Source of the DNA: a virus
Lineage: Duplodnaviria > Heunggongvirae > Uroviricota > Caudoviricetes
DNA: 36,183 bases
Reading direction: 5' to 3' (one strand)
IMG/VR virus record: IMGVR_UViG_2551306525_000009
Shown: piece by piece, positions 1 to 26,600 of the stretch
Position numbering within the stretch: position 1 is the first letter of the stretch
Layout of the letters: each line of letters begins with the position of its first letter
The notes under the pieces: generated by a model
Database searches by the model: none
What the model saw: the letters and a program-made list of their open reading frames with translations, nothing else
Told to the model about the DNA's origin: nothing
Program-made: the position numbers and the translations under genes

Positions 1-33
1 AAAGAGTTCCTTTCAAATTTAAATAAGCGTTAA

Positions 34-56
34 GCCCACCACTCTTACTGGTGGGC
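34..56 (-). terminator. stem-loop downstream of the hok-like ORF (GCCCACC-N9-GGTGGGC) followed by an A/T-rich tract on the minus strand
   Basis: perfect 7-bp inverted repeat read directly from sequence; T-rich stretch follows on the reverse complement. Confidence 0.4.
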
Positions 57-135
57 CTCAATTTAAATTTGGGTGCCACTTCGACCATACCCAGGCAACC
101 GATTGACGGGGGATTGCTCCCCCGTCGCGGTTTCC

Positions 136-276
136 TTACTGCTTACACTGTAAGAACGCCGCAAACTCCGCGCCCCAGAAGCTCATCCGTATTTCGCACA
201 GCGAACCATGCAATATCCAGATGATGAGGATTACCGTCACGCAGAACGTGATGGCTGTAAGCGATTTTTGCGACAT
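136..276 (-). CDS. Hok/Gef-family small membrane toxin (type I toxin-antitoxin), 46 aa; not in the ORF track because it is under 60 aa
   Basis: manual translation MSQKSLTAITFCVTVILIIWILHGSLCEIRMSFWGAEFAAFLQCKQ; one TM helix then SLCEIR...AAFLxCK, matching the conserved Hok tail (HokA ends SLCELH...AAFLACK, from memory); AAGGAG 8 nt upstream of ATG. Confidence 0.6.
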   Translation of the reverse strand: MSQKSLTAITFCVTVILIIWILHGSLCEIRMSFWGAEFAAFLQCKQ

Positions 277-466
277 AGCACTTGCTCCTTTTCCGGAGAG
301 GCGCTAACCTTTCACTTGCTTAGGGTAGACGGTTAGGGCCTCGGTTAAACAAAAGTGTTTTCCGGGGCCTTTCCACATCTGGCCTTCGGGTATTCCCTCC
401 GACCATCAGCCGAAAGGCACCCGCGCGTAATCTATCGCTTTTTTGTTACTCCGGCAATTCTGCCTG

Positions 467-727
467 TTAATTCTGAGGTAAAGGCAAACTCATCTGATTG
501 TTTCCCCTGTGTGAAGCTGGCAGCTCATGCCACGGGATACCTTCTGATGAGTGAACGCCGGAGGCGTGTTTCGATGTGAATTTATGGAAGGCTTCCAGTG
601 TTGAGAAGCATACGCCGCATTCCAGGTTGTTACACTGGTAATACTTTTGCCGCACGGTGTTTGAATCATTTTCCGGACGACTGGTGCGGATACGGGCAGA
701 TGCGCCACAAAGCGGACAACGGAACAT
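467..727 (-). CDS. ogr: late gene transcriptional activator Ogr/Delta family (zinc finger)
   Basis: MFRCPLCG...YQCNNLECG matches the Cys4 zinc-finger N-terminus of P2 Ogr / 186 B; position adjacent to D. Confidence 0.85.
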   Translation of the reverse strand: MFRCPLCGASARIRTSRPENDSNTVRQKYYQCNNLECGVCFSTLEAFHKFTSKHASGVHSSEGIPWHELPASHRGNNQMSLPLPQN

Positions 728-769
728 AGCGACCTCCCTTAACGTGGTGCTGCCGCTATTCTAAGTTCT

Positions 770-1870
770 TCACTCTGTTTCCGCTATCCATTCCGGGATT
801 TTTGCCTCAAGCTCAAGCTGCGTGGTAAAGCCGCTGTTATCAATGGTGTGCTCGGCTTTTGCAATAATCCAGTCCTGATTATCAATCTCGCTTTTAAATC
901 CTGTTACCGTGCCATGCATTTCGGGATAGAGTTCTGCGCGTCCACGCGCCAGCGTGATGGAGAATGATGCGGCTCCGCGTTGTAGCTGCTGCCACTTTGC
1001 CGCCGCTGCGCGTCTTGCTGCCTGCTCGTTCTGATAAGTCTTGCGTAACACAAACACATTGCCTTCCGCGCCCTCCATATAATCACCTTCACGGCTGCTG
1101 CTTTTCTCCTTTTTCGGTTTGCGGCGTTTCACGCTGACTTTTTTCTTTTTCCCGTAATTAAGATCAAGCCAGTAGGCGCGTACACCTGTATACGCCTCGC
1201 GGTCAGCAATGCGAAACTGATGGCGATCGCCGCTGCTGCGTGTGATGGCAAACGATGGCAATGGTTTTCCCTGCGCGTTCACGCCACCACCTGGCATAAT
1301 GAATAACAGATTACCGCTTTTTACCGTGGTGATTGCGCCCAGCATTTCCGCCATGCGCGTAAGGAAGGACATGTCACTTTCTTCGGTCTGGTCGGCGTGG
1401 TCGATTTCGATATCCATCAGCATTTCGCTGATTTGCGGTTTCAGACCGTACCGATGAGCGATGGCGGATACCACTCGCTCAACGGTCACATCATGCCAGG
1501 ACACTTCGCGCTTGACGTTAAATTCATCCCGAAAATCTGCGCTTCTGGCTGAAATGGTCAGTCTGTCGGGAGGTCCTTCATGAGCAATTTCATCAACAAT
1601 GTAAGTGCCTTTTTCTGTCAGCGGTTCGCCTTTCCAGCCAATGAGAACCGTCAGGCGAGCGCCCCGTGGCGGCAACTGCAACTGACCATCAGCATCATCC
1701 AGCGTGATGGTGAGCTGGTCTGCTTCAAATCCCCGGTTGTCGGTCAGTGACAGGCTCATCAGGCGCTCTGCCACGCCGGACAGCGTTTTACCCTCGGCGA
1801 GAATATCAAAATCCGGCATTTTCACGGGGTCTGTGCCCTGACTGAGCAATTGCATGGTGGTGTCGGTCAT
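770..1870 (-). CDS. D: tail protein D (late control gene D)
   Basis: similarity to P2 gpD (LSLTDNRGF, RLTISARSADFR, REGDYMEG, TIDNSGFTT blocks); start chosen at internal ATG with GGGAGGGA RBS (ORF track extends to 2002). Confidence 0.85.
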   Translation of the reverse strand: MTDTTMQLLSQGTDPVKMPDFDILAEGKTLSGVAERLMSLSLTDNRGFEADQLTITLDDADGQLQLPPRGARLTVLIGWKGEPLTEKGTYIVDEIAHEGPPDRLTISARSADFRDEFNVKREVSWHDVTVERVVSAIAHRYGLKPQISEMLMDIEIDHADQTEESDMSFLTRMAEMLGAITTVKSGNLLFIMPGGGVNAQGKPLPSFAITRSSGDRHQFRIADREAYTGVRAYWLDLNYGKKKKVSVKRRKPKKEKSSSREGDYMEGAEGNVFVLRKTYQNEQAARRAAAAKWQQLQRGAASFSITLARGRAELYPEMHGTVTGFKSEIDNQDWIIAKAEHTIDNSGFTTQLELEAKIPEWIAETE

Positions 1871-2027
1871 CTGCTCCCTCCCTGTGTGGCATGGTCGCAT
1901 GTGCGTGCGGAGGGGGTTACTGCTTTTTGTTGTCGCCGTGGCGGGAGAACGGCGCAGGGGTGAGATTACGCGCGTGGTGGGTGATGATTGTTGCCGAATC
2001 ATTTAACGGATACAAGGGGCTGAAGCT

Positions 2028-3212
2028 ATGAGTGAAACTCGTTTTCATGGTGCCCGTGTTACGGAAAATACCGACCTGGTAACAGCGATTAACGATGTTG
2101 ATTCCAGCGTTATCGGTATCGTGGCAACGGCGGATGATGCGGACGCGAAGCTGTTCCCGCTGAACAAGCCCACACTGCTGACCCGCGTCAATGACGTGCT
2201 GGGAAAATGCGGAACAACGGGGACGCTTTATCGTGCGCTTAAGGCCATCGCAGACCAGGTGAGCACAAAGGTGATCGTCGTTCGCGTGGCTGAACACAAA
2301 GAAGAAGACGAAAAGACGCAGGATCAACTGGTTATCGGTGGTTCTGAGGATGACGGCAGCTATACGGGGATGTATGCGCTGCTTGTTGCAGAGCAGGATG
2401 AAAGCATCGGATACCGTCCGCGTATTCTGGCCGCGCCGGAGCTGGACACGGAGGCGGTGACAAAATCCCTGTGCGTGATTGCGGGTAAACTGCGCGCATT
2501 TGTGTATGCCTCATGTCACGGCTGTAACACGATGGCTGAAGCGATTACCTACCGCCAGAAATTCAACGAACGTGAAGTGATGCTCTTATGGCCGGACTTC
2601 ATCGCCTACAACCCGAAAAGTGGCGAAAACGAAACGTTCCCCGCGCCTGCTTATGCGTGCGGCCTTCGTGCGTACATTGACCATGAGCAGGGCTGGCACA
2701 AATCGCTGTCCAACGTTCCGGTTAAAAATGTGCTGGGGATGTCGAGGCATGTGTTCTGGTCGTTGCAGGCCGAAGACAGCGATGCCAACAGCCTCAACAA
2801 CAAAGAAATCACGACCATTATTCGTCGCAACGGGTTCCGCTTCTGGGGCAACCGCACACCGGAAACGAACGCCTACATTTTTGAGGTGTATACCCGAACC
2901 GCACAGGTGCTGGCTGATTCAATTGCGGAAGCGCAGTTTGAAACCATCGACAGTCCACTGACGCCTGCGAACGTGAAGGATGTTATCAGTGCCATCAGGG
3001 CAAAACTGGATTCACTGGTGACTGCCGGGAAACTGATTGGCGCGGAGTGCTGGTATGACGTGGTGGATAACAGCACCACGGATTTACGTCAGGGGCGTGT
3101 GCGTATTCGCTACAAATATACGCCCGTTCCGCCACTGGAAGACATGGAGCTTTACCAGACGTTTACTGATGAATACTTTGAACCCGCATTTGCGGTGCTG
3201 GGAGGTGCCTGA
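2028..3212 (+). CDS. FI: contractile tail sheath protein FI
   Basis: 394 aa, size and sequence character of the P2 FI sheath family; followed by the tube gene with ATGA-type overlap. Confidence 0.9.
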   Translation: MSETRFHGARVTENTDLVTAINDVDSSVIGIVATADDADAKLFPLNKPTLLTRVNDVLGKCGTTGTLYRALKAIADQVSTKVIVVRVAEHKEEDEKTQDQLVIGGSEDDGSYTGMYALLVAEQDESIGYRPRILAAPELDTEAVTKSLCVIAGKLRAFVYASCHGCNTMAEAITYRQKFNEREVMLLWPDFIAYNPKSGENETFPAPAYACGLRAYIDHEQGWHKSLSNVPVKNVLGMSRHVFWSLQAEDSDANSLNNKEITTIIRRNGFRFWGNRTPETNAYIFEVYTRTAQVLADSIAEAQFETIDSPLTPANVKDVISAIRAKLDSLVTAGKLIGAECWYDVVDNSTTDLRQGRVRIRYKYTPVPPLEDMELYQTFTDEYFEPAFAVLGGA

Positions 3213-3724
3213 TGGCTGTGCCAAAACATCTTCGCTTTTTTACGCTGTTTGTGGATGGTGAAAACGAAGTGGGTAAGGTGACGTCCGTCACTCTGCCCAA
3301 ACTGACGCGCAAAACCGACAGCTACCGGGGTGGTGGCATGATGGGGGCGGTAAGTATTGATCTCGGTCTGGACGACTCCGCGCTTGATGCGAGCTTTGTC
3401 ATGGGGGGCGCAGTTCGTGAGCTGTTCCTTAAGTATGGCGGCACGATTGACGGCACGCTGCTGCGTTTTGCGGGTGAATACTACACCGATGCAGAAAGCG
3501 ACCTGTATGAAGTCGAAATGCGCGGACGTGTGACGGAAATTGATATGGGGGAAGCCAAACAGGGCGAAGCCACATCACACACTTACGCCATTAAAAACAC
3601 CTACTACAAGCTGAGTGTTAACGATCGTCCGTTGTGGGAGATTGACCTGCTGAACTTCATTTACCGGAAGGACGGCAAGGACATTGTGCCCGATCGCATC
3701 CGTTCCGCGCTTGGGCTTGGCTGA
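3212..3724 (+). CDS. FII: tail tube protein FII
   Basis: 170 aa, immediately downstream of sheath; P2 FII-like. Confidence 0.85.
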   Translation: MAVPKHLRFFTLFVDGENEVGKVTSVTLPKLTRKTDSYRGGGMMGAVSIDLGLDDSALDASFVMGGAVRELFLKYGGTIDGTLLRFAGEYYTDAESDLYEVEMRGRVTEIDMGEAKQGEATSHTYAIKNTYYKLSVNDRPLWEIDLLNFIYRKDGKDIVPDRIRSALGLG

Positions 3725-3778
3725 TAAGTAATATGCAGGCGGCGCAGTGCGTCGCCTCTGACTGAAAGGAGTTTCCTG

Positions 3779-4144
3779 ATGAAAGAGACGAAAAACATCG
3801 ATACCGAAAACACGGTAGTTGCTGACACTGTGAAAGAAACCAGTGAGCGTGGCGTAAAACTTACCCAACCCATTGAGCGAGGCGGCGAAAAAATCATGTA
3901 TGTGGAGATCACCGGGGCTATTGAGCAGGCTGGATCTCTGCGAGATTTGTCGCTGTCTGATGTGCTGAATCTGAAAGCGGAATCCATGTTTACGCTGCTG
4001 TCACGCGTGACATCACCGCGACTGGATGAAGTGACGATCAAAAAAATGGCATCCCGTGACTTTATTCAGTTATGTGTGGTTGCCGTAAATTTTTTGAGCG
4101 GTGCGGACTCTGGCGGGAAGAACGAACAGGCGACGGAAGCCTGA
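3779..4144 (+). CDS. E: tail assembly chaperone E
   Basis: 121 aa ORF between tube and tape measure; contains slippery heptamer near its 3' end. Confidence 0.8.
   Translation: MKETKNIDTENTVVADTVKETSERGVKLTQPIERGGEKIMYVEITGAIEQAGSLRDLSLSDVLNLKAESMFTLLSRVTSPRLDEVTIKKMASRDFIQLCVVAVNFLSGADSGGKNEQATEA
4090..4096 (+). other. programmed -1 ribosomal frameshift slippery heptamer T_TTT_TTG
   Basis: heptamer in the zero frame of E (codons TTT TTG); the -1 frame stays open to 4308. Confidence 0.7.
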
Positions 4145-4308
4145 TCACGGTTGTGTGCTTTGAGCACATAGAAGACTTTGTGGCAGATATTGCCGTTATT
4201 TTTAACTGGTCGCCCGCCGAAATCTTCATGATGACGCCCGGCGAAGTGGTTAGCTGGCGTGAGCGGGCGGCACTTCGCAGCGGGAATGCAGACAATGAAG
4301 ACTCTTGA
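4095..4308 (+). CDS. E': E' extension of the E+E' frameshift product (tail assembly chaperone fusion)
   Basis: -1 frame from slippery site translates ERCGLWREERTGDG...NEDS, equal to the ORF-track 4072..4308 frame; conserved E/E' (lambda G/GT-like) arrangement. Confidence 0.7.
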
Positions 4309-7102
4309 TATCCGGGTCGCTTTCAGCGCCGTTGACAGGCTGACCCGACCTGCCGAAAACGCCCGCCGCCTGATGGGGCAGTTTGGTGACTCCATCCAGC
4401 GAACGCAGGGGGCGATCAAAAATCTCGAGCGTCAGGCGCGTTCATTTGAGCGCGCCCGCGACGCTGTCAGTAAAGCGGATGCGGGTATCGTGAAAGCGCG
4501 ACGCCAGCTTAACGCCCTTAATCAGTTACAACGCACGGGTACAGTGCTCAGCGAAAAACAACAAAAGCTGATGCAGCAGTTAAGCACCCGGCTTGAACGC
4601 CTGAATGAATCGCGCACACGGGAAATTCAGAAAATGCGGGAGCTTGGCGGAGAGCTGAAACGCCACGGCATTTCCCTGACAGGCAGCGATAACACCATCC
4701 AGCAGGCCATCAGACGCACCGAACAGTACAACAACCAGCTTGAACGCGAACGGCAGGCGCTTGCGCGTGTAACGCGGGCGCGTGAGCGGTATTCGCGCGT
4801 GCAGGAAACCGCGGGAAAACTGAAAACAGGTGGTGCGCTGGCAATTGGTGCGGCAGCGGCTGGCGGCTATGCTGCCGGGCGTTTTTTGCAGCCTGCGATC
4901 GGGTTCGGCAAAGAGATGTCCCGCGTTCAGGCACTGACGCGAATCGACCAGAACAGCCCGCAGTTTAAGGCGCTGCGTGAGCAGGCGTTAAAACTTGGCT
5001 CTGAAACGCAGTTCACCGCAGGCGATGCCGCCAGTGGGCAGGCATTTCTTGCAATGGCTGGCTTCACTCCGCAGGCCATTCAGGCTGCGCTTCCCGGCGT
5101 GCTGAGCATGGCAACGGCTGGCGGCATGGATCTCGGCGAGACGGCGGATATTGGCTCAAATATCCTGACGCAGTTCGGCCTTTCTGCTGACCAGATGGAC
5201 CGGGTCGGTGACACACTCACCGCAGCGTTTACCCGTACCAACACTGACCTTCGCGCACTGGGCGAAACCATGAAATATGCAGGTCCGGTTGCGGGTAAGC
5301 TGGGAATATCGCTGGAGCAGGCCGCAGCGATGGCTGGCGTGCTGGCGAATATGGGCATCAGAGGGAGTGATGCCGGGACGGCAATGCGTGCCAGCCTGGC
5401 TCGTCTGGCATCACCGCCAAAGGCAGCAGCAGAGGCGCTGAAAGAGCTTGGTGTGGCAGTCTCTGACGCGAACGGCAAAATGCGCCCGATGGAGGATGTG
5501 CTGGCCGACCTTTATAAAGCCACCCGCAAATACGGGGAAGTTGACCGGGTATCGTTCTTTAAGGACATTGCCGGGGAAGAGGCTTTCACATCGTTTATGG
5601 CGCTCGTTGATGCAGCGGGTGACGGTTCCTTACCTAAACTGAGAAAAGAACTTGAAGGCGCGCGCGGTGAGGCTGAACGCACAGCAAAGGTCATGGCCAA
5701 CAACCTTGACGGCGATCTGAAATCACTCGGCAGTGCATGGGAAGGGTTGCGCATCCGCATTGCAGATCTGATTGACGGTCCGCTGCGTTCTGTCACGCAG
5801 TGGCTCACGCGGGTGGTATCAAGGGTGACGGCGCTGGCGCAGGCCCATCCGGCACTGACGCGCCAGCTACTGATAGCAGGCGGTGCGTTGCTGGCAATGA
5901 CTGCAACGGTTGGCTCGTTGTCGCTGGCTATTGGTGTGCTTGCTGGTCCGCTGGCAAAACTGCGTCTTGGTTTTTCTCTCCTGACCGGATCAATGAATGC
6001 TGTCAGGGTCCTGCCAGCACTATGGGGAATGGTGACGGGTTCCGTTTCTTTACTGGGAGGCGCTATCGGGGCGCTGTTCAGCCCGGTTGGTCTTATCGTG
6101 GCTGCGCTTGCCGGAGCTGCCGTCCTTATCTGGAAATACTGGGATCCCATCAGGGCATTTTTTGCCGGGGTGTTCAGCGGGATTATGGAAAGGCTGACCC
6201 CGTTGCGCGAAACCTTTGAACGGTTTGGTCCTGTTTTTGACGCAATCGGAAGCGGGATAAGCCAGGTGTTTAACTGGTTTAAATCGCTGCTGTCACCGAT
6301 GGAGTCCAGCAAGGAAACGCTGGATAAATGTACCAGTGCTGGCGAGATATTCGGTAACGTTCTTGGCGGTGCGTTACAACTTGTTCTGACACCTGCAAAA
6401 ATGTTGCTGGATACGCTGGCGTGGATACTTGAAAAGCTCGGTGTGCTTCCGGATGAAGCGGAAAGGGCGCGCAAGAAAATCGAAGACGCACAGCGTGCGG
6501 CCATTCTTCAGGACAAGGTTGCCTGGCTTCAGGGGGACCTGGCGAAAATCAATCCGCCGAAGCCTGTGGAAAATGGCAATGGCACCGGAGGTGATAAACC
6601 CAAAGACAACAAACCACTCACAGACAGCAATACCGGTACGCTACGCAGACTCAGCAAAATTGCTGATAACACAGGTAAGCTGGTTGATGAGACGAAAAAA
6701 CGCATTGGCCCCGGCGATATTGTCTTTAAGAACCTGCCCCGCGCACTTGCTGTTCGTGGGGAGTGGCAGGAGCGGAAGATTGCGCAGGTCAGTAAGCCTG
6801 CTTCCGCAATCAATATCACACCCGTGGTCCAGACTCCTCTTCCTCCGGCGCTGGTCCCTGTTGTTGCGGCCAGCTCCCGCCCGGTGGCGGAGGCCATACG
6901 ATCGCCAGTGGCATCAGTTCCTGCAACTTCCCGTAACCGGGAGCCTGTTGTCTCCGGATTTGGCGGTGAAATTCATGTTCATCTGCATAACGTTGTTACG
7001 CAGAATCCCCGCGAACTGGCGAAACTGGTCGGTGAAATGGTCAGGGCAGAGGTGGAACGGCGTGCTCGTGCCGGACGTGGCAGTTTTTACGATAAAGATT
7101 GA
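4286..7102 (+). CDS. T: tail tape measure protein T
   Basis: ~940 aa, coiled-coil N-terminal region, hydrophobic Gly/Ala-rich central segment; between E' and U; start uncertain (GTG 4259, ATG 4286 or 4295). Confidence 0.85.
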   Translation: MQTMKTLDIRVAFSAVDRLTRPAENARRLMGQFGDSIQRTQGAIKNLERQARSFERARDAVSKADAGIVKARRQLNALNQLQRTGTVLSEKQQKLMQQLSTRLERLNESRTREIQKMRELGGELKRHGISLTGSDNTIQQAIRRTEQYNNQLERERQALARVTRARERYSRVQETAGKLKTGGALAIGAAAAGGYAAGRFLQPAIGFGKEMSRVQALTRIDQNSPQFKALREQALKLGSETQFTAGDAASGQAFLAMAGFTPQAIQAALPGVLSMATAGGMDLGETADIGSNILTQFGLSADQMDRVGDTLTAAFTRTNTDLRALGETMKYAGPVAGKLGISLEQAAAMAGVLANMGIRGSDAGTAMRASLARLASPPKAAAEALKELGVAVSDANGKMRPMEDVLADLYKATRKYGEVDRVSFFKDIAGEEAFTSFMALVDAAGDGSLPKLRKELEGARGEAERTAKVMANNLDGDLKSLGSAWEGLRIRIADLIDGPLRSVTQWLTRVVSRVTALAQAHPALTRQLLIAGGALLAMTATVGSLSLAIGVLAGPLAKLRLGFSLLTGSMNAVRVLPALWGMVTGSVSLLGGAIGALFSPVGLIVAALAGAAVLIWKYWDPIRAFFAGVFSGIMERLTPLRETFERFGPVFDAIGSGISQVFNWFKSLLSPMESSKETLDKCTSAGEIFGNVLGGALQLVLTPAKMLLDTLAWILEKLGVLPDEAERARKKIEDAQRAAILQDKVAWLQGDLAKINPPKPVENGNGTGGDKPKDNKPLTDSNTGTLRRLSKIADNTGKLVDETKKRIGPGDIVFKNLPRALAVRGEWQERKIAQVSKPASAINITPVVQTPLPPALVPVVAASSRPVAEAIRSPVASVPATSRNREPVVSGFGGEIHVHLHNVVTQNPRELAKLVGEMVRAEVERRARAGRGSFYDKD

Positions 7103-7108
7103 GGAGTC

Positions 7109-7603
7109 ATGGCCATGATGATGATCTACGGCATGTTTGTTTTTGAGCTGCGCACATTGCCGCATCAGCAGTTACAGCAAAACAAAAGCTGGCGGCATGT
7201 GAAAAATGAGCGCGTAAACCGCTCAGCAAGCTGGCAGTATATCGGTGCAGGTGATGATCGCATCGTGCTTTCTGGCGTGCTTTATCCTGAAATTACAGGT
7301 GGCGAAGTGTCGCTTTCGCTGCTGACCACGCAGGCATATACAGGACGCCCCTGGCCTCTGATTGATGGTGTCGGGCAGATTTACGGCATGTATGTACTGA
7401 CTGAAACGAATACGACCCGCTCCGAGTTTGATCGCTACGGTAAGGCGAAAAAGATAGAGTTTTCACTGACTCTTGAACGCTGTGATGAGGATTTGCGGGA
7501 GCGCCTGCAATCCTCATCGTTCAGTGATATGCTGTCCGGCTTCAAAGATAAGGTCACATCATCCCTTAACAGCGCGGCCAGCTCCGTTAAAGGGCTGTTT
7601 TGA
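7109..7603 (+). CDS. U: tail protein U
   Basis: similarity to P2 gpU (LSGVLYPEITGG, WPLIDG..IYGMYV, KIEFSLTLER blocks). Confidence 0.85.
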   Translation: MAMMMIYGMFVFELRTLPHQQLQQNKSWRHVKNERVNRSASWQYIGAGDDRIVLSGVLYPEITGGEVSLSLLTTQAYTGRPWPLIDGVGQIYGMYVLTETNTTRSEFDRYGKAKKIEFSLTLERCDEDLRERLQSSSFSDMLSGFKDKVTSSLNSAASSVKGLF

Positions 7604-7610: not shown

Positions 7611-7640
7611 AAAACCGCTAATGGTCAGATTAGCGGTTTT
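7611..7640. terminator. bidirectional rho-independent terminator between U and the invertase (AAAACCGCTAAT-ggtcag-ATTAGCGGTTTT)
   Basis: perfect 12-bp stem with 6-nt loop, T-run on plus strand; overlaps the invertase 3' end. Confidence 0.65.
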
Positions 7641-8230
7641 CATTTTCCTGAGTCTGCCTGGTTGTTTCTTCAGCCTGTATATCGCCTACAGGGTGATAAC
7701 GATAAATCGTCGATATGCCGATGTCGTAAATGATCGCCAGTTGTTTCCTGTCATGACCGTTTTTGATCAGCCTTGCTATTTGCTCATGCTGTTCTTTTGT
7801 CAGCTTCGGGCGACGTCCGCCTGTGCGCCCCCCGTGCGCGCGCTGCCGCCAGTCCGGCCAGTGTACGTTCAACAATTAATTCACGTTCCATTTCAGCCAG
7901 GGCACCCATAACGTGGAAGAAAAAACGCCCCATTGGAGAAGATGTATCTATGCTGTCGGTCAGACTGCGAAAATTAATCCCTCGCTCCCGTAGTTCCCCG
8001 ACGAGAGAAATCAGATGTTTCATGCTTCGCCCGAGGCGATCCAGTTTCCAGACAACCAGCGTGTCACCTTTTTGAAGCCGCTTTAAAGCGCGTTTTAATC
8101 CCGGTCGGTCTGTCTTTGTCCCGCTTAATTTATCTTCAAATATTTGTTCACATCCTGCGCAAACAAGAGCGTTTCGTTGCAGGTCTGTATTCTGGTCATT
8201 TGTTGATATCCTTACATAACCAATCAGCAC
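7630..8230 (-). pseudogene. Hin/Gin/Cin-family serine DNA invertase, reading frame broken by a +1 shift in a G6 tract (plus-strand C run 7828-7833)
   Basis: ORF 7784..8230 encodes the catalytic domain (GYVRISTNDQ...) and ORF 7630..7875 encodes the HTH C-terminus (GGRRPKL...IIYDIGISTIYR) in another frame; removing one G restores ARG-RTGGRRPKL. Confidence 0.8.
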
Positions 8231-8284: not shown

Positions 8285-8312
8285 TTATCTAAAACCTCGG
8301 TTTGCAGGAAAC
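8285..8312 (+). repeat. left inversion crossover site (gix/hix-like) TTATCTAAAACCTCGGTTTGCAGGAAAC
   Basis: 26/28 match to the inverted copy at 11235-11262; resembles Gin/Hin crossover sites (from memory). Confidence 0.75.
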
Positions 8313-9198
8313 AGTAAACAAGGCTGGTAACGCCGTTCAGCGTTCCGGCGATAAAATGACCGGAGAGCTGAAAATTGGCACGGTGAATGCGCTGCGAATT
8401 TTCAATGATGCCTTCGGTCTTATTTTCCGTCGTTCAGAAGATTTTCTTCATTTCATTCCGACGGCTGAAGGACAAGGCGAAAACGGTGATATCGGCCCAT
8501 TAAGGCCATTCGCTATAAATCTGAGAACAGGTGCTATATCTGTCAGCCACGGGGCCAAAATTGAAGGAGGTCTAGCTATTGGAGCTACTGATAACGCACT
8601 GGGTGAAAACTCCATTGTTCTGGGAGATAACGACACCGGATTTAGGCAAGATGGAGATGGTATTATTAGCTTCTATTCAAATGGTTCGCGCATCGGACAT
8701 ATTGATGAGTTAGGGTTACATATTTATAAAGATATTGAATCTAATGGCAGCAATTTTAGATTAAAAGGTAATTACCGCCACCACATTACATTCGCCAACG
8801 AAGACGGAAGTATTCGTATGTTTTTGTGGAAAGATAAAGATGGTGATGGTGTTCATATTAATAATGGTTCAAGCGGTGGCGGTGATTTCGTTTTTAAAAC
8901 AGATGGGGGATTTGCGCTGGGAAGTGGTGCGCAAGTTGCGTCTAATGGCGATATTTATGGTTCAGTGTGGGAAAACAACTGGTTAAGCACATGGCTGCAT
9001 AATCATGTCGTTCGGGATATTCGTCTTGGCAGCATTGAATATAAAAACGTATGGCGCGACTCCGGCTTTGGCGATGCGTCAGGTTATGTTTTAACAGCCG
9101 CAATTAACAGCAATGCGGATGATATTGTCGACACTGTTGCCAGAAGGCCAATTCAGAAATTGATTGGGGGAATATGGTATAACGTGGGGAGTGTTTAA
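8302..9198 (+). CDS. alternative tail fibre C-terminal cassette (Sv'-like), no own start codon in the current orientation
   Basis: frame open through left gix site; begins LGLQETVNK..., same junction as H (LGLQETVNQ); C-terminus [19 protein letters not shown] parallels the H C-terminus. Confidence 0.75.
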
Positions 9199-9199
9199 G

Positions 9200-9727
9200 A
9201 TGATGCACCTGAAAAATATTAAGGCCGGGAATCCGAAAACACCGGAACAATACCAGCTAACTAAAAAAGCGGGCGTGGTATGGCTCTTTTGTGAAGATGG
9301 CAAAAACTGGTATGAGGAACAAAAGAATTTTCAGCCAGACACCATAAAAATTGCTTACGATGAGAACAACATCATCGTTGCTGTCAGTAAAGACGTTTCA
9401 ACTATTAATCCTGAAGGGCTAAGCATAGTTGAAGTTCCTGATATTACGGCAAATCGTCGCGCAGACAATAACGGAAAATGGATGTTTCTGGATGGTAAAG
9501 TAGTAAAGAGGGAATATACAGAACAGGAACTGCAACAACAGGCCGAATCACAAAAGGCCGCATTGCTTTCCGAAGCTGAATCAGTCATCCAGCCGCTGGA
9601 ACGCGCTGTCAGGCTGAATATGGCAACAGACGAGGAACGCACACGACTGGAAGCATGGGAACGCTACAGTGTTCTGGTCAGCCGTGTGGATACGGCAAAT
9701 CCTGAATGGCCACAAAAGCCTGAATAA
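9200..9727 (+). CDS. alternative tail fibre assembly chaperone (Tfa')
   Basis: [14 protein letters not shown]... paralogous to the Tfa at 9756..10289; ATG 1 nt after the Sv' stop. Confidence 0.8.
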
Positions 9728-9732
9728 AAATT

Positions 9733-9752
9733 AAGGCCCGATATCGGGCCTT
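9733..9752. terminator. bidirectional hairpin between the convergent tfa genes (AAGGCCCGAT/ATCGGGCCTT)
   Basis: perfect 20-bp palindrome read directly. Confidence 0.6.
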
Positions 9753-9755
9753 CTC

Positions 9756-10289
9756 TCATTCTGGTTGTTCGGGAAACGTTACTGGCAGGCTGGAAGTGTC
9801 TGTAGATTCGACTTTCTGCGCAAAGAGCATCCACTCTGTTAATTTTTGTTTATTCTCGTCGGAAATGATGCCCAGCCGTAGCTGTGAGTCCCATAGCTGG
9901 GTTTTATCCCTGACAAGTTGCAACAGGCTTTGCTTTTCATTTTCCGCTTGTTGCCTCTGCTCTTCCTCGGTACAAGTTCGCTTTATCACTACGCCATCTT
10001 TGAACATCCATTTCCCCGAAATATCAGCCCGGCGATTTGCTGTAATATCAGGTAATTCAACGACGCTTGCCCCCTCTGGATTAATTGCTGAAACATCCTT
10101 TTCAATGCAAATAATAACGCCGTTATGGTCATAGACCATTTTCAAAGTGTCTGGCTGGAAATTCTTTTGTTCCTCATACCAGTTTTTTCCATCATCTGAA
10201 TAAAGCCACTTAATGTTAAATTGCTTTGTTAGCTGGTACTGCTCCACTGTTTTAGGATTACCAGCGGTAATGTTTTTTAAGTGCATCAT
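9756..10289 (-). CDS. G: tail fibre assembly chaperone
   Basis: 177 aa, MMHLKNITAGNPKTVEQYQLT...; immediately downstream of the fibre gene. Confidence 0.85.
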   Translation of the reverse strand: MMHLKNITAGNPKTVEQYQLTKQFNIKWLYSDDGKNWYEEQKNFQPDTLKMVYDHNGVIICIEKDVSAINPEGASVVELPDITANRRADISGKWMFKDGVVIKRTCTEEEQRQQAENEKQSLLQLVRDKTQLWDSQLRLGIISDENKQKLTEWMLFAQKVESTDTSSLPVTFPEQPE

Positions 10290-10291
10290 AA

Positions 10292-12394
10292 TTAAATACT
10301 TCCCGCGTTATACCAAGTCCCATTAATGCAATACTGAATTGGCCTTGCCTGAGTTGTATCAATTAATTCATCACGGTTTCCGTTAACTGAACCCGTAACG
10401 ACATAACCTGACCTGTCAGACCAGCCGGGACCATTCCATGTCTGAACAGATGACAGACCGCCAAGGCGAATACCTGTAATAAACCTTGAGTTACATTCTG
10501 CCTGCGTATATGCACCAACATCTCCCGCAGAGGGTTTGCGGGTTGTGGTGTAAAACTCTGACCAGTCAGCTTCAAAGCCATAACCATCACGCGCTGAACG
10601 ATAAAAGATACCGCCATTTCTGTAATTCACGCGGAACTGTGCAGCAGGGCAACTCCCCGTATTCATATTGAAGTGGAGGATTAATGTCGATGCGCCACCA
10701 ATATTTGCGTTATAGACCCCGCTATTCCAGTTCCAGCCAACAGCTTTATCATTTCCGACAGTGCTTCCTGTTTGCCCTAAAGCAAATGCAGGTTGTTGAT
10801 TTTTCGTGTTGTAGTCTCGTCGCCAGCCAGGAGCATAAGCATCACCATGATTAATATAAGTGAATTGAGCGTTAGTAATTCCGCCACCGCTGGACGTGCT
10901 CGGCGTAGTAACGCGTATGGTCATTGCGCCGCGAGTGCCAATAACTTCCACCACAGCACCTGCAAGACAAATATTTCCGCAACCTGTATCTGTAATGACC
11001 TTATTATTTGCATAAGCCCATGAGCCTTTGCACATCCAGTAAGGATGGTTAAATGCTCCCTGACTCTCCAGCCACGAAATAAATTGCGCGGTTGTCCAGA
11101 CCTGACTATCGCCACCAATATTCAGCCATGAGCTATATGCGCGGCAGGCACCAATATTTTTGGTGAAGGTATCTTTTCCTGGAATATCTGCGCCGTTCTG
11201 GTTTTTCTGTAATGCGCCAGAAGCCTGATTTACCGTTTCCTGCAAACCGAGGTATTCGATAACGGCAGCAACGTTCGATTTCGCAAGAATATCCCGCCCG
11301 ACTTTTGTCAGGGTTGCCAGGCTGGCGACATCATTCCCCGTAAAATACGGAAACTTGTCTGCCGCAGTAGCAAGCCCGGCCAGCGCCGTCAGGGTGGCAT
11401 CTTTCGGTTGCTTACCCGCAAGCGCGTTAGTCATGGTGGTCGCAAAATTCGGGTCGTTGCCCAGCGCCGCCGCCAGCTCGTTCAGCGTGTTCAGTGCGTC
11501 AGGTGAAGAGTCTACAAGTGCGGCAATCGCGGCCATAACGAAAGCCGTGCTTGCGATTTGGGTATTATTCGTTCCCTGTTGTGCAGTTGGTGTTGTTGGC
11601 GTTCCGGTCAGTGCCGGGCTGTTTAATGGGGCTTTCTTGTTCGTTTCATCCATTACCGCCTTAACTGCTTTTGGTGTCGCTGCCAGCGTTTCAGACGTGC
11701 TGTTGGTTGCACTGCTGAGCTGGACTATCCCTTTTCGTGCCGTCGTGGCGTCCTGAGCGGTATATTTTCCGTTAGCCAGGTCATACGCGGCCTTAACCGC
11801 TTTCGGCGTTGCGGCCAGCGTTTCAGAATCGCTGTTAGTGGCGCTACTGAGTTGAACAAAGCCTTTTGCGGTCAGCGAGGCGTCCGGGTGACGTCGTGAC
11901 TGTTCATGCTCTTTCAGTTTGTCATCCACGTAATCCACTGTGGCCATCACCATGGTGTTATCCACGGTAAGCGCCACGGTGGCAGTGCTGGATACGGTCA
12001 GAATGGTGCGAAATGTTTGTGCACGACCGGACCCTTCGGCAACGGCTGGCTTGTAACTTTCGGCAGTATTGCCCACCGCGATTAAATCGCCGTGCTCATC
12101 AAATACACCAATTTCCCGGATCCAGAATCCGCCCGTTTCAGGAGGAATAACCAGCTCCGCAATAATGCGGTTCTGATGTGTTGCGTCCAGGATGACGCGA
12201 TTAACAGTGTGTCGCCACACCTCATGCACCAGACGGGTCTGCTTACTGTCTGGTGTGGGCAACGTGCCGCCACCGTCGCCCACGGCCATATGAGTCAGGC
12301 GGACAGGCTTACCATCTGGCGCGGCTGCCTGAGCTAATTTTTTTGCACCCGTATCGGTGATAACGGTTTTAAATTTTCGTGTTGTGGTACTCAT
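10292..12394 (-). CDS. H: tail fibre protein (constant N-terminal part fused to the currently expressed variable C-terminal part)
   Basis: 700 aa; gix-like site embedded at the constant/variable junction (11235-11262). Confidence 0.85.
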   Translation of the reverse strand: MSTTTRKFKTVITDTGAKKLAQAAAPDGKPVRLTHMAVGDGGGTLPTPDSKQTRLVHEVWRHTVNRVILDATHQNRIIAELVIPPETGGFWIREIGVFDEHGDLIAVGNTAESYKPAVAEGSGRAQTFRTILTVSSTATVALTVDNTMVMATVDYVDDKLKEHEQSRRHPDASLTAKGFVQLSSATNSDSETLAATPKAVKAAYDLANGKYTAQDATTARKGIVQLSSATNSTSETLAATPKAVKAVMDETNKKAPLNSPALTGTPTTPTAQQGTNNTQIASTAFVMAAIAALVDSSPDALNTLNELAAALGNDPNFATTMTNALAGKQPKDATLTALAGLATAADKFPYFTGNDVASLATLTKVGRDILAKSNVAAVIEYLGLQETVNQASGALQKNQNGADIPGKDTFTKNIGACRAYSSWLNIGGDSQVWTTAQFISWLESQGAFNHPYWMCKGSWAYANNKVITDTGCGNICLAGAVVEVIGTRGAMTIRVTTPSTSSGGGITNAQFTYINHGDAYAPGWRRDYNTKNQQPAFALGQTGSTVGNDKAVGWNWNSGVYNANIGGASTLILHFNMNTGSCPAAQFRVNYRNGGIFYRSARDGYGFEADWSEFYTTTRKPSAGDVGAYTQAECNSRFITGIRLGGLSSVQTWNGPGWSDRSGYVVTGSVNGNRDELIDTTQARPIQYCINGTWYNAGSI
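11235..11262 (-). repeat. right inversion crossover site (gix/hix-like), reverse complement TTATCGAATACCTCGGTTTGCAGGAAAC
   Basis: inverted copy of the site at 8285-8312; lies inside the H reading frame at LGLQETVN. Confidence 0.75.
11658..11867. repeat. imperfect tandem duplication (period ~132 bp, 44 aa) within the constant part of the fibre gene
   Basis: GCCTTAAC(T/C)GCTTT...CCAGCGTTTCAGA... occurs twice; encodes the repeated VQLSSATNS.SETLAATPKAVKA motif. Confidence 0.6.
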
Positions 12395-12396
12395 GC

Positions 12397-12927
12397 TTAA
12401 TCGTCCGGATAAATGGTAATAACTTCACCGTCATAAGTTGCCGCCGCTGCGAAAATATCCCCCGGAATTTCCTGAATGATATTCAGCCCTGTCATGTGGC
12501 GGCTGACCGGACGGGCATCAGCAATCAACCGCTCCATTTCCAGATACATTTCCTCCGTCACGCCACTGTCCAGTGTGCCGACTTCAACGGTAAATGTTCC
12601 CGGTTCTCCGCCGAACTCCCACCACTCAGACACGCGAATGAGGTATCCCAGCGGCTCAATGGCCCTGCGCAGTGCGCTGATGGTCCCTTTGTGTCGGTGT
12701 ATCAGCCATGCATCACGAATCACCTGTCGCTTTGTCTCTTCCGGCCAGTTGCGATCCCAGCGGTCAACGGAAAACGCCCAGGCGAGATAAGGCAGCAGAT
12801 GCACCGGGCAGGTGTCCGGCGACCACAGCGTGTTGAGGTCTACCGGAATGTCTGTAATGCGTGTTCCGACGGCTTCGGCACAACGCATGAAATTGCTGGC
12901 TGATGGTGGTAACAACGAATTACTCAT
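12397..12927 (-). CDS. I: baseplate protein I
   Basis: similarity to P2 gpI (LLPPSAS, WLAWAFSVDRWD, HKGTI, MERLIADA blocks); start at internal ATG 12927 (ORF track 12960). Confidence 0.8.
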   Translation of the reverse strand: MSNSLLPPSASNFMRCAEAVGTRITDIPVDLNTLWSPDTCPVHLLPYLAWAFSVDRWDRNWPEETKRQVIRDAWLIHRHKGTISALRRAIEPLGYLIRVSEWWEFGGEPGTFTVEVGTLDSGVTEEMYLEMERLIADARPVSRHMTGLNIIQEIPGDIFAAAATYDGEVITIYPDD

Positions 12928-13816
12928 TGCGTCCACCTTCGCTGATGGTGAATGACTCACAGCGCGCCGCCTGTATGTCGCTGATGGCCATATTCTGTGT
13001 GGGTTCGATTATCTCCACGCGTTGCACACCGTGCACATGCAGTGCGGCAGCAATGGCGGACAACGCCACGTCCTGACCGATAAGCCCCTGTTCAGCCAGC
13101 CACTTCCTGAACGACGATTCAGCCGCGGCCAGAATAGGTTCGGATTCCGGGCCGGGGTAAAAGTACAGTTTTGCATTCAGCCGCCATGTCACGATGCTGG
13201 CGCTCTGTACCGTCAGGCGGTCGGCCACCGGGCGGGTATCCTCTGCATTCAGAACGGCGCGAACGGTATTAAGCAACGCCTCCGTTGCTGTGCCGTCGCC
13301 TTCAGTGGACAGGATGGAAACCGTCACACAGGCCGGAGACGGACTGATAGCCCGTGCATCGCGCACCAGACCGCTGGCGCTGCGGGCAAAATACTCGTAT
13401 GCGCCTGACGGGCCAGCAACACTCAGGCCGTCGTATGCCCGCTGCGCCCGCAATCTCAGCGAGGTGTCGCTCTCCATCACCGCGTCGGTGGTATCCGTTG
13501 CCGGAGTGATAACCAGGCGCTTTGTGTTCATATTGCCCGCGAGGTTGTCCAGGTCTGTCCCGGCGCTGTGGCTTAACATGCAGGCGCGTGCGCCCTCGTT
13601 AACCCGCTGGCGTAACAGCATTTCACGAAACGACATGGTTTGAGCGATAACGTTCAGGGGTTCTGATTCCAGCTCCAGCGCGGCGGAGACGGCTTCACGC
13701 TGTTCGGCAGGATAGGACGCAATCATCATGGCCTTTGTGTCAGCCAGAATTGCCTCAAAGTCAGGCTCCGCGATGATGGCGGGTTCCGGTAACTGTGAAA
13801 GGTCAACGGCGGGCAT
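12920..13816 (-). CDS. J: baseplate protein J
   Basis: 298 aa, position and size as P2 gpJ. Confidence 0.8.
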   Translation of the reverse strand: MPAVDLSQLPEPAIIAEPDFEAILADTKAMMIASYPAEQREAVSAALELESEPLNVIAQTMSFREMLLRQRVNEGARACMLSHSAGTDLDNLAGNMNTKRLVITPATDTTDAVMESDTSLRLRAQRAYDGLSVAGPSGAYEYFARSASGLVRDARAISPSPACVTVSILSTEGDGTATEALLNTVRAVLNAEDTRPVADRLTVQSASIVTWRLNAKLYFYPGPESEPILAAAESSFRKWLAEQGLIGQDVALSAIAAALHVHGVQRVEIIEPTQNMAISDIQAARCESFTISEGGRNE

Positions 13817-13819
13817 GAT

Positions 13820-14170
13820 TTACTCCCTCAGCGTGATGGTTAATTCAACATTCTGCATGGTCTGCATGACAGTGCCCGACAGCGTCACCCCGGCGCGGCC
13901 TCCCGCTTTCCAGACAACGTCGATGGCATCCAGGGCAATGCGGGGTTCCCATCGTGTCAGCGCAATCACGGCAGCACTCATGCATTGCAGACGCGTGGTG
14001 TTATTCATGGGTTCGTCAATCAAATCAGGCACAAGGCTGCCATATTCCCGTCGCATAACCCGGCTTGCCAGCGGGGTGGTCAGGATATCCCTGACTGACT
14101 GTTTCAGGTGCTCCATATCGTTCAGGTTTCCCGTCCCGTCCGGATTCATTCCTGTGTAGCGGGTTGTCAC
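13820..14170 (-). CDS. W: baseplate wedge protein W
   Basis: 116 aa; RVMRREYGSL block as in P2 gpW. Confidence 0.8.
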   Translation of the reverse strand: MTTRYTGMNPDGTGNLNDMEHLKQSVRDILTTPLASRVMRREYGSLVPDLIDEPMNNTTRLQCMSAAVIALTRWEPRIALDAIDVVWKAGGRAGVTLSGTVMQTMQNVELTITLRE

Positions 14171-14748
14171 TGCGGGCCTCCTGTCGAATCGCTGCCGCCT
14201 TTCACGCCACCGTGTTTATGCGTATGCACGGTAATGCCGTTTGAGGTGAAGTTGCCGCCGCTGTGCGTGATATTGCCGCTCATCTTTCCTCCTTTTGTGA
14301 CGTCAAGCGTCGCCGTTCTCAGAAGGTTTGTGCATTCCACGACGGGCGTATCCAGTTTCACGCTGACGGATGCCTGTAAAGTGGCCGTTTTCATGCCGCT
14401 GGCGCTCAGTGCGCCTGCGTCCGCGTCGTAGCGGAACACCGCGCCGTCCGGCGCGCTGATCACGATTTCTTTCAGGCTTTTGCCGGGTGCCGGATTGGCA
14501 TCACTCCACAGGCTGCCAATTATCATGGCGGTTTCCGGGTTGCCGCCAATGCAGGCAATTGCCACCTGTTCGCCTGGTGATGGCGGCAGCCACACATTGA
14601 AGGCTCCCGCGCGCGTGGTGTTCCAGCGCAACCAGCCTGTTTCCAGTTCGCCGCTGCGAACGCGCACGCACCAGGATTCCTCATCAACTTCAGAGATGAT
14701 CCCGGTGCGGATGATGTTGCTCAGCAGTCGCATGAGTTCTGCGCTCAC
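14167..14748 (-). CDS. V: baseplate assembly / spike protein V
   Basis: 193 aa; P2 gpV-like N-terminus (RTGII.E, W..RAG, P.GEQV). Confidence 0.8.
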   Translation of the reverse strand: MSAELMRLLSNIIRTGIISEVDEESWCVRVRSGELETGWLRWNTTRAGAFNVWLPPSPGEQVAIACIGGNPETAMIIGSLWSDANPAPGKSLKEIVISAPDGAVFRYDADAGALSASGMKTATLQASVSVKLDTPVVECTNLLRTATLDVTKGGKMSGNITHSGGNFTSNGITVHTHKHGGVKGGSDSTGGPQ

Positions 14749-23652: not shown

Positions 23653-23932
23653 GACTCTCCAGCTCCTGTATCAGTCAGATAATTTCACGACGCTTTCCTG
23701 CTTATTGCCATCATCGACGGTCAGATTCTTACGCAATCCCACCGCGTTAACTGCATGTTCTCGCCGCCTCAGTGCGATTTTGACGGCCTTACCTTTCACC
23801 CCATCAAATCAAAAGCCCTCACGTCTTTTTCACGCTCAGCGTGAGAAATACAGCCATTCTGTTGTGTTGCTGCGACATCGTTCAGGGGATGCTATTTACC
23901 CCCTGAAACGCGGGCTGTTCCCCCGTCACCTG

Positions 23933-23956
23933 CGCGCAGAAAAAGCGCGTTTTTTT
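23933..23956 (+). terminator. rho-independent terminator (CGCGC-agaaaaa-GCGCG followed by T7)
   Basis: GC stem plus seven T read directly; could stop read-through from the P-Q operon. Confidence 0.5.
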
Positions 23957-24026
23957 GTGCACGCACGGATCCTTGACGGATCCAGCCGCCATGCGGGCCG
24001 GAAGGGTAAAAAGTCGTTCAAAAAAA

Positions 24027-24053
24027 TTGTGCAAATTTGTGCACTATTGTGCA
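24027..24053. repeat. three direct TTGTGCA repeats at 10-bp phasing (TTGTGCAAAT TTGTGCACTA TTGTGCAAC)
   Basis: read directly; helical-turn spacing suggests a protein-binding array. Confidence 0.5.
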
Positions 24054-24070
24054 ACAGAGAAAGAAGGCCA

Positions 24071-24102
24071 GGAAGAAAGAAAAGCCGCCTTCAAAAGGCA
24101 GC
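24071..24102 (-). terminator. rho-independent terminator closing the leftward accessory operon
   Basis: minus strand reads GCTGCCTT-ttga-AGGCGGC then TTTTCTTTCTTCC, 43 nt after the 24145 stop. Confidence 0.6.
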
Positions 24103-24144
24103 TTTTCAGATTAGTAAGGGATTGATAGATAGTCGTCGCAAAAC

Positions 24145-24525
24145 TCAAAAAGAAGACTGGAACTCTTCTGCTCTGCGCTCAATTTCTGCCATGTAGGATG
24201 TACGGGCTAACTCATGCGCATTGGGTGTCATAATGCTGATTAGCTGATACTTATCTGGATATAAGAAATGGCGGGAGTAAACAAGATAACTGTTTGATTT
24301 ACGCGAGGCGGCAGGTAGCTTTGCAGGCCACGGCTGTTCATCAGGTAAACGAATGTGAATCTTAAAAACAAAAGAATCACGAAGACGCCCGCTATCTTCC
24401 CACTGCCCTTCGTTGCCAAAGACTGAGGGTAAAGATCCGCCGTTTTTCCATGACTGCAAAGCATGTGCATATTTGCGAGCAACTGCGGGGAGTTCTATGT
24501 CATTGTGGACAGAGACTTTAATCAT
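24145..24525 (-). CDS. YafO-like toxin-domain protein
   Basis: 126 aa; C-terminal LISIMTPNAHELAR...AEEF resembles E. coli YafO (LIAILKPEPHKLAR...AEAF, from memory); also SLPSVFG vs VLPDIFG and SYLVYS vs AHLVYC. Confidence 0.5.
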   Translation of the reverse strand: MIKVSVHNDIELPAVARKYAHALQSWKNGGSLPSVFGNEGQWEDSGRLRDSFVFKIHIRLPDEQPWPAKLPAASRKSNSYLVYSRHFLYPDKYQLISIMTPNAHELARTSYMAEIERRAEEFQSSF

Positions 24526-24534
24526 GGCCCTGCC

Positions 24535-25128
24535 TTAATGGAACGTTGGATCTTTAAGGCCCAGCTTTTTATGTTCACTGCGGATAAGTGCGCGAACCTG
24601 ATCGGCGGTAACACCCAGATCAGCATCTGAAGTTTTCTTCGGCACATGCGTGCTTTCAATGAAGGATAAAATATCTTCAATCGTATAGCGGAGCGTCGCA
24701 GCGGAACGAGCAAAAGCGACAATCTCTTTTCTCAGTTCCGCGTTACTTTCAGGTACGCTTTTCAGCGCAACCCTTGCAGCCTCGACAAAACTTGCACATA
24801 CCGCAATATGACGGAAAAGGCTTTCAAACCCTTCCTGAGTCTCTTTTTTCTGATTTTTCAGAATAATAGGGATCTGCTTTTCTTCCCATTCGATGCGAAG
24901 GTTTGCCCTGTGTGTCTTCATCCTATCAGCCAGGTTAAGCATATAACTGGTGGCCTCATCAATAGGAAGGTATGCCACAGAATCCTTTACGTCCTGGAGG
25001 GATAGCGTAGACGTACTGTGCCGGGAGATTGATAAGTCATGATGCACAATGCTACTGGCAGGAACAGGGGCGAGAGCCACCGCCAGCGCTGCGGCCATAG
25101 ATGTTATTTTATTTTTTTTACTGCTCAT
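24535..25128 (-). CDS. hypothetical protein, 197 aa, N-terminus resembles a signal peptide or TM anchor (MSSKKNKITSMAAALAVALAPVPASS)
   Basis: ORF with GGAAAGG RBS; 9 nt upstream of the YafO-like gene; not recognisable as YafN/RelB-type antitoxin. Confidence 0.55.
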   Translation of the reverse strand: MSSKKNKITSMAAALAVALAPVPASSIVHHDLSISRHSTSTLSLQDVKDSVAYLPIDEATSYMLNLADRMKTHRANLRIEWEEKQIPIILKNQKKETQEGFESLFRHIAVCASFVEAARVALKSVPESNAELRKEIVAFARSAATLRYTIEDILSFIESTHVPKKTSDADLGVTADQVRALIRSEHKKLGLKDPTFH

Positions 25129-25217
25129 AATTGCCTTTCCTGCCAATAATCGTGAACCACTGCCGGAATGATAGCGCAAAAAATCACCCGCTGAAACGAA
25201 TTATCCTTGCGGCAAAA

Positions 25218-25304
25218 CTAGCCCGCGTCAACCTCATACCACGCCAGCGTCGATTGATAGTTTTGTGCCGCCTCGCGTAATGCCTGATAGTCAATTTTGC
25301 TCAC
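25218..25304 (-). CDS. putative 28-aa micro-ORF (VSKIDYQALREAAQNYQSTLAWYEVDAG), GTG start overlapping upstream stop
   Basis: AGGAGG 7 nt upstream of GTG; GTGA overlap with stop of the 174-aa gene; identified manually. Confidence 0.3.
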   Translation of the reverse strand: MSKIDYQALREAAQNYQSTLAWYEVDAG

Positions 25305-25825: not shown

Positions 25826-25885
25826 CGTGTTTTCCTCGTGCGGGGCGACAGTGCACCCCGATAAAATTAAAAGCCGTCAAATTCG

Positions 25886-26596: not shown

Positions 26597-26600
26597 TGGT

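Follow-up and report, generated by a model that had tools for sequence, protein, structure and literature searches.

A probably locked tail-fibre host-range switch of the Mu G-segment type in a P88-like prophage

The best-known host-range switches of tailed phages are the G segment of Mu, the C segment of P1 and the P segment of e14, in which a DNA invertase turns over a segment of the tail-fibre locus. In the Gin and Hin systems, invertase dimers seated at the two crossover sites come together with a Fis-bound enhancer on supercoiled DNA to form the invertasome. The locus described here lies in a viral DNA stretch of 36,183 nucleotides (IMG/VR record IMGVR_UViG_2551306525_000009), which in its full length is called the window below. 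It consists of a tail-fibre gene H, two opposed cassettes between inverted crossover sites, and an adjoining serine invertase gene. It is probably a switch of the Mu, P1 and e14 type within a P88-like prophage, whose own invertase is frameshifted and which is probably locked.

Similar segments have been described outside Mu-like phages. Inversion of a fibre segment in the P2-like prophages of enteropathogenic Escherichia coli (EPEC) E2348/69 has been shown by sequencing and the polymerase chain reaction (PMC4272514).

The crossover sites and the two cassettes

The segment is bounded by two 28-mers, TTATCTAAAACCTCGGTTTGCAGGAAAC at 8285-8312 (+) and TTATCGAATACCTCGGTTTGCAGGAAAC at 11235-11262 (-), which are identical at 26 of 28 positions. 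The features of the locus are collected in the table.

Table. Features of the invertible segment and its surroundings (positions in the window)
Feature	Position	Strand	Description
Terminator-like hairpin, probably bidirectional	7611-7640		Between gpU (ending at 7603, +) and the invertase gene (ending at 7630, -); terminator scan
Gin/Pin-family serine DNA invertase gene, frameshifted	7630-8230	-	Resolvase open reading frame (ORF) 7784-8230; HTH_7 in the other frame, 7630-7875
Putative enhancer (sis-like)	8146-8209	-	In the 5' 85 nt of the invertase gene; two 15-mers resembling Fis cores, 8195-8209 and 8146-8160
Invertase-proximal crossover site, gix-like, 26 bp	8285-8310	+	TTATCTAAAACC-TC-GGTTTGCAGGAA; core 8297-8298
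Silent fibre C-terminus Sv_silent, Sv-type, 299 codons	8299-9198	+	ORF; Pfam gp37_trimer
Silent tail-fibre assembly chaperone, Mu U-type, 175 aa	9200-9727	+	Pfam Caudo_TAP 9e-37; protein 83% identical to Mu U
GC-rich hairpin and T-run between the convergent chaperone genes	9733-9752	-	Terminator scan; terminates the operon of the expressed fibre
Expressed tail-fibre assembly chaperone, Mu U'-type, 177 aa	9756-10289	-	Pfam Caudo_TAP 1e-35; protein 96% identical to Mu U'
Fibre gene H, 700 aa	10292-12394	-	ORF; runs through the right site without a change of frame
Expressed variable fibre C-terminus, Mu S'-type, 317 aa	10292-11248	-	Pfam gp37_C
Fibre-side crossover site, gix-like, 26 bp	11237-11262	-	TTATCGAATACC-TC-GGTTTGCAGGAA; inside the H frame, codons ...I-E-Y-L-G-L-Q-E...
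Constant part (Sc) of H, about 383 aa	11249-12394	-	P2 gpH-type N-terminus; Pfam Phage_tail_fib and two Phage_fiber_2 repeats

In each site a 2-bp core is flanked by two 12-bp half-sites. The core reads TC in the invertase-proximal site and GA at 11249-11250, which places the two in inverted orientation. Compared with the gix site of Mu, the invertase-proximal site is identical at 24 of 26 positions and the fibre-side site at 23 of 26. Both inner half-sites carry a G where Mu and most relatives have an A.

A degenerate 26-bp pattern, allowed up to 3 mismatches, finds these two sites and no additional match in the 36-kb window (0.00 expected from 100 shuffles). A shufflon, a multi-site system driven by the Rci tyrosine recombinase, was considered and rejected, since there are two sites only even with 3 mismatches and the recombinase is of the serine type.

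In the inverted-repeat search the site pair extends to 60 nt at 78% identity (repeat I3). Further inverted repeats (I1, I2 and I4) occur between both chaperone genes and between the fibre C-terminal ends, as is expected because the two opposed cassettes are homologous. The similarity that runs past the 26 bp to about 60 nt, with both sides encoding the same peptide, would also suit repeats that are the mere homologous boundary of duplicated fibre genes and have no function in recombination. This explanation is close to impossible. The core 26 bp match Mu gix, the sites adjoin a Gin homologue, and sister strains differ by inversions that break precisely at these sites (see below), a finding that already contradicts it.

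The span between the sites measures 2.95 kb (2,954 bp between the cores) and holds two convergent cassettes, each made of a fibre C-terminus and a Caudo_TAP chaperone gene. The expressed C-terminus, read in one frame with the constant part of H, is 98.7% identical in protein to Mu S' (Sv', the end of the G(-) fibre) and 95% identical to gp49 of SfMu. Terminators equivalent to the hairpin between the chaperone genes are annotated in D108. Within the constant part, a 96-nt direct repeat at 11658-11885 (75% identical, spacing 132 nt) corresponds to the two Phage_fiber_2 repeats.

The silent fibre ORF begins inside the left site as GLQETVNK..., in the same frame that H uses at the right site. It has neither a start codon nor a promoter of its own, and inversion would fuse this silent tip to the constant part. 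When positions 8297-11250 are reverse-complemented in silico, the constant 383 aa and the silent ORF join into an uninterrupted fibre of 681 aa. In the present orientation the outer half of the left site carries an in-frame TAA, so that there is no reading into the silent cassette.

Inspection of the sequence and comparison with an annotated E. coli copy find no stop and no frameshift in the silent cassette. Its tip is near-identical across all copies: it lies 1 nt from a "hypothetical protein" annotated in E. coli ZY22049, 1 nt from the copy in the relative L001, and 3 nt from the copy in another strain (L011, introduced below), where it occupies the expressed position. Among 50,697 phage records its best relatives are Mu-like Yersinia phages, at 47% protein identity, and its likeness to Mu or SfMu is limited to short stretches. 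For annotation this means that a silent fibre tip is what many E. coli genomes list beside the invertase as a 298-aa "hypothetical protein".

Substitutions between copies of either cassette are mostly synonymous, whichever of the two is expressed (for example 21 nt against 3 aa, and 28 nt against 5 aa). Therefore both cassettes are maintained, irrespective of which one is in use.

An initial annotation, made from the sequence alone, had described gix-like 28-bp repeats inside the fibre gene, two opposed cassettes with the constant N-terminus outside them, and a frame shared by both sites that would let inversion swap the receptor-binding domain. The coordinates proved exact and the neighbour is a Gin homologue, ORFs and Pfam agree with the layout of the cassettes, and the in-silico flip yields the expected fusion. 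A silent cassette with inactivating lesions, or sites that no invertase recombines, would have spoken otherwise; the cassette is free of such lesions and equivalent sites recombine in nature. The comparison of both variable domains with known fibres, which the annotation had proposed, gave one close match, to Mu S', and one distant one.

Evidence for inversion comes from relatives of the prophage. E. coli genomes were counted when they matched at least 80% of a 4.8-kb stretch, either with the window as it is or with a construct flipped in silico. The two orientations are about equally common, with 67 genomes matching the window and 60 the flipped construct.

Two pairs of sister strains differ by the inversion itself. 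In the O111 outbreak isolates 95JB1 and 95NR1 and in the O145 strains RM9467 and RM9872, flanks of 2.8 and 3.2 kb are 100% identical, and in both pairs an interior of 3.3 kb is reverse-complemented, with breakpoints inside the repeats. The outer half-sites of these strains are identical to those of the window, and the inner half-sites differ at one base (A vs G). The G variant of the inner half-site occurs in L001 next to the invertase and in L011 on the side of the fibre gene, showing that this variant has been involved in inversion as well.

In intact copies, a Gin-family invertase would bind both 26-bp sites together with Fis on an enhancer that lies in the 5' part of the invertase gene itself. 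Cleavage at the 2-bp cores and a 180-degree rotation of subunits would exchange the strands and flip the DNA between the cores. As a result the constant part of H, which stays outside the segment, would be fused in frame to one of two receptor-binding C-termini. The same flip would put the matching chaperone gene behind the fibre, and the hairpin between the cassettes would terminate the operon.

A candidate for the enhancer is present. Two 15-mers near the start of the invertase gene are putative Fis cores, assigned by presumed homology with hin. Their centres are 49 bp apart, and about 96 bp separate them from the proximal crossover core. The first G of GTATCAACAAATGAC, which we take to be the proximal Fis site by the same presumed homology, is changed in the window by a G-to-A substitution at 8209. 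This substitution is private to the window, not being seen at full coverage in 611 E. coli genomes, and it also produces V8I in the invertase, next to the catalytic Ser9. Over the first 100 nt or so of the gene, the part that houses the enhancer in Mu and hin, only 3-4 positions differ from Mu gin. The spacing of the 15-mers agrees with the enhancer geometry described for hin (PMC3798978).

The frameshift in the invertase gene

Pfam recognizes both domains expected of an invertase in the window gene, Resolvase (6.8e-50) and HTH_7 (3.3e-13). An intact relative of it matches the Gin structures 4M6F and 3UJ3 (E about 1e-101) and has 82% protein identity to Mu Gin. Aligned with three intact relatives of 199/195 aa, the window gene shows a +1 frameshift, due to a run of six G (G6) where the relatives have five (C6 on the + strand, 7828-7833). 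Translation of the frameshifted ORF stops at 148 aa, which leaves the catalytic domain and the DNA-binding domain in separate frames. Apart from the extra G, only 1 further nucleotide distinguishes the gene from one intact relative.

The frameshift speaks against this copy being active, not against the segment being a switch of the G type. An enzyme without the helix-turn-helix (HTH) domain could presumably not bind the crossover sites, and because of this the prophage would be committed to the Mu G(-)-type fibre. The switch is probably fixed in a state like G(-) of Mu, unless a related invertase of another prophage acts in trans. With the adjoining invertase frameshifted, it is doubtful that this copy inverts by itself, a situation that fits the suggestion of the initial annotation to supply an invertase in trans. 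We infer the loss of invertase activity, the function of the enhancer, the receptor and flipping in trans by another invertase.

The expressed fibre end and chaperone are nearly identical to Mu S' and U', and a host range like that of Mu G(-) is therefore predicted. It would include E. coli C, Shigella sonnei, Citrobacter freundii, Enterobacter cloacae and others, and would not include hosts with lipopolysaccharide of the K-12 type. The G(+) and G(-) host ranges of Mu have been described (PMC4406740). For prophages of this kind, the host range that is predicted depends on the orientation of the segment recorded in the assembly.

The frameshift could be an error of assembly or sequencing, in which case the switch would be fully functional and the prophage would flip its own segment as its relatives do. 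Only one base has been added, to a run of five G, and the rest of the invertase gene is intact. None of 160 complete E. coli genomes carrying this invertase allele has G6 (best match 85/86), and an exact-pattern scan of GTDB representatives did not find the frameshift.

The same G6 is however present in two other public sequences: L011 (IMGVR_UViG_2529293142_000012, an IMG isolate contig, 1-5884) and L019 (OLVC01000171.1, an ENA metagenome contig). Both are about 1% different from the window elsewhere, L019 having 67 mismatches in 7.5 kb, and the segment of L011 is 2.7% diverged. Because the same allele recurs in sequences that differ from the window at other positions, G6 is quite probably a real, inherited allele, likelier than a random error. 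A fully functional switch hidden by a sequencing error is accordingly unlikely.

A further idea is that the G5/G6 tract itself serves as a reversible lock of a second tier. Ribosomes might slip by +1 on CGG-GGG-G, or the tract might change length by slipped-strand mutation, so that switching is throttled and not abolished, and lineages would alternate between switching and a committed fibre through slippage or reversion. If tRNA-Gly slipped by +1 on GGG-G, the wild-type sequence would be recovered exactly, G6 carriers are known in both orientations (the window and L011), and G6 persists in more than one dataset. Six G are however short for frequent slippage, and there is neither a stimulatory stop nor a rare codon in the A site. 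With G6 in only 2-3 of the roughly 170 invertase alleles seen, and with opposite orientations equally explained by recombination or by an invertase acting in trans, a reversible lock of this kind has very little probability.

Several observations weigh against a real and locking frameshift in a Mu G(-)-like switch. The extra base sits in a homopolymer, where a sequencing artefact is possible, and a second homopolymer differs in length at 27654, with T7 in the window and T6 in its nearest relative. L011 and L019 do not differ within their overlap and may count as one witness. In L011 the frameshift is accompanied by a segment that points the other way, and flipping may still occur in that background. 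Both inner half-sites of the window carry G, which may affect recombination, although single G-variant sites have recombined in relatives. Inversion is seen in relatives with an intact invertase, and none is observed for the window sequence itself. Finally, the receptor is predicted by sequence identity only, and SfMu, 95% identical in this region, uses the O-antigen of S. flexneri.

The T7 run at 27654 alters the last 9 or so residues of the replication protein gpA (27626-30490, -), and it bears on how reliable homopolymer lengths are in this record.

The opposite orientation of L011 may fit a flip that followed the frameshift, whether by another invertase or by residual activity. It may equally fit recombinational re-assortment or recurrent mutation. 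An argument that the flip came after the frameshift, drawn from the near-identity of the invertase flank and the silent tip between the window and L011, was rejected: the silent tip is near-identical in all copies and holds no information on linkage.

A frameshifted allele that occurs in more than one dataset amounts to a small natural experiment. It can be asked whether such switches keep flipping through the invertases of co-resident prophages.

The prophage around the segment

The window is essentially one complete P2-like prophage, with an ogr-type zinc-finger gene (467-727) at one end and an integrase (35161-36183) at the other. By ORFs and Pfam, the full set of P2-family structural genes is present and all are open. 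Sequence comparison places the prophage in the P88 group (Xuanwuvirus, Peduoviridae) of Escherichia. Over the first 25 kb, 96% of the window aligns at 97.6% to E. coli prophages, and a survey of 5426 complete E. coli genomes finds 672 that contain at least 80% of this part. The flk and pdxB genes flank the element in E. coli ZY22049.

The integrity of the prophage bears on another explanation of the broken invertase, namely that the segment is kept for the benefit of the bacterial host. A resident invertase of the Pin type would flip it and a fibre fragment would block phage adsorption, as with StfE2 of e14 and PinQ. Inversion across prophages with a defence phenotype has a precedent (PMC12529663), and the invertase is broken while sites and cassettes are intact. 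The prophage nevertheless looks complete from ogr to int, with open P2-type structural genes, and is not a cryptic remnant. Its cassettes are ordinary fibre tips and chaperones, under purifying selection in both positions. A role in host defence is thus most improbable, and a phage host-range switch is the preferred reading of the segment.

The tail block FI-FII-E-T-U (2028-7603, +) is on the opposite strand to V-W-J-I-H (10292-14748), and gpD (770-2002, -) lies apart from gpU. In P2, the tail genes FI-U, V-H and D are all on one strand, with U and D adjacent. The arrangement of the FI-U block beside the invertase gene also occurs in P88 and E. coli prophages, and by this comparison it is a feature of the group at genus level. 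Inversion of the block by the invertase at relic sites was considered and rejected, as there are no inverted repeats at the ends of the block and the arrangement is common to the whole P88 group. In E. coli ZY22049, the closest E. coli relative, gpD is interrupted (L010, 12919-14915): an extra ORF of 1 kb is present and an 801-nt VgrG/Pvc8 fragment is left. The gpD of the window, unlike that of ZY22049, is whole.

Several other modules are found further from the fibre locus. Rfam reports, above the gathering score, a C4 antisense RNA (31209-31296, -, 77 bits) and the small RNA isrK (31332-31406, -, 63.5 bits). Both hits lie inside or overlap an Ash-family ORF at 30846-31466, forming an antisense module like immI of P1/P7 in a P2-like prophage. 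A ParM actin-like plasmid-segregation protein is encoded at 26601-27560 (-; StbA_N 2e-82), and the gene beside it is annotated as a partitioning or stability protein in a relative, so that 26285-27560 (-) represents a partition module of the plasmid type in an integrated prophage. At the left end, a small ORF (136-276, -) corresponds to a Hok/Gef family toxin annotated in the aligned E. coli relative (97.9% DNA identity).

The alignment with relatives stops at a cargo region that follows the portal gene (23705-26221). Three of its ORFs, of 163, 214 and 174 aa, have no Pfam or PADLOC match, and a fourth one (111 aa) contains a zinc finger of the ClpX type. PADLOC and Pfam find no defence system among the cargo ORFs.

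Comparison with known systems

The closest described counterpart of the switch is the G segment of Mu. Both have the same order, namely constant part, site, Sv-U, U'-Sv', site and invertase, in the same relative orientations and with the same TC core. The S', U' and U proteins of the window are 83-99% identical to those of Mu, and the DNA of the putative enhancer region is nearly identical. The host phage of the window is however P2-like and not transposable, and the constant part is a P2 gpH-type N-terminus of 383 aa. The window differs also in its second fibre tip, which is not related to Mu Sv, in the frameshift of its invertase, and in the G that replaces A in both inner half-sites.

The C segment of P1 and P7, inverted by Cin, follows the same logic with a recombinase of the same family. 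Its DNA for U, U' and S' matches positions 9175-10840 of the window with an identity of about 91%. Unlike the window element, it resides in a plasmid prophage.

P2-like prophages have been found to use the same principle. Fels-2 of Salmonella is generally known to exchange fibre C-termini by means of its serine invertase, Fin, which reportedly acts in trans on hix. In the P2-like prophages of EPEC E2348/69, fibre C-termini are likewise exchanged by a serine invertase, and both genotypes of the fibre locus have been shown experimentally to co-exist (PMC4272514). One of the EPEC loci differs from the window in having three repeats and four variants, an arrangement like that of a shufflon, compared with two sites here.

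The P segment of e14 (PinE/PinQ) again shares the recombinase family and the logic. It belongs to a cryptic lambdoid remnant, while the prophage of the window is apparently complete. PinQ of one prophage can flip the e14 P segment of another (PMC12529663).

In P2 itself, a terminator and fun(Z) come after H-G, and there is neither an invertase nor a pair of opposed cassettes. The initial annotation was right that P2 lacks such a segment; the contrast carries no novelty, as segments of this kind are known in P2-like prophages (PMC4272514) and are standard in P88-like phages.

Close relatives are also the P88-like phages (P88, Escherichia phages 520873 and 503458, and Citrobacter phiSM) together with E. 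coli prophages, at 92-98% DNA identity. They share with the window the order tape measure (T), gpU, invertase, segment, H, I, J, W and V, their outer half-sites are identical, and both orientations are seen. They differ in that the cassettes are mosaic: P88 and the O145 and O111 prophages have other silent or active tips, and their invertases are intact.

The element in the window represents a known mechanism, a textbook one in Mu, P1 and e14 that is already documented in P2-like prophages. What it adds to these systems are two minor points of interest, a silent fibre tip without a close phage relative and a circulating frameshift allele of the invertase.

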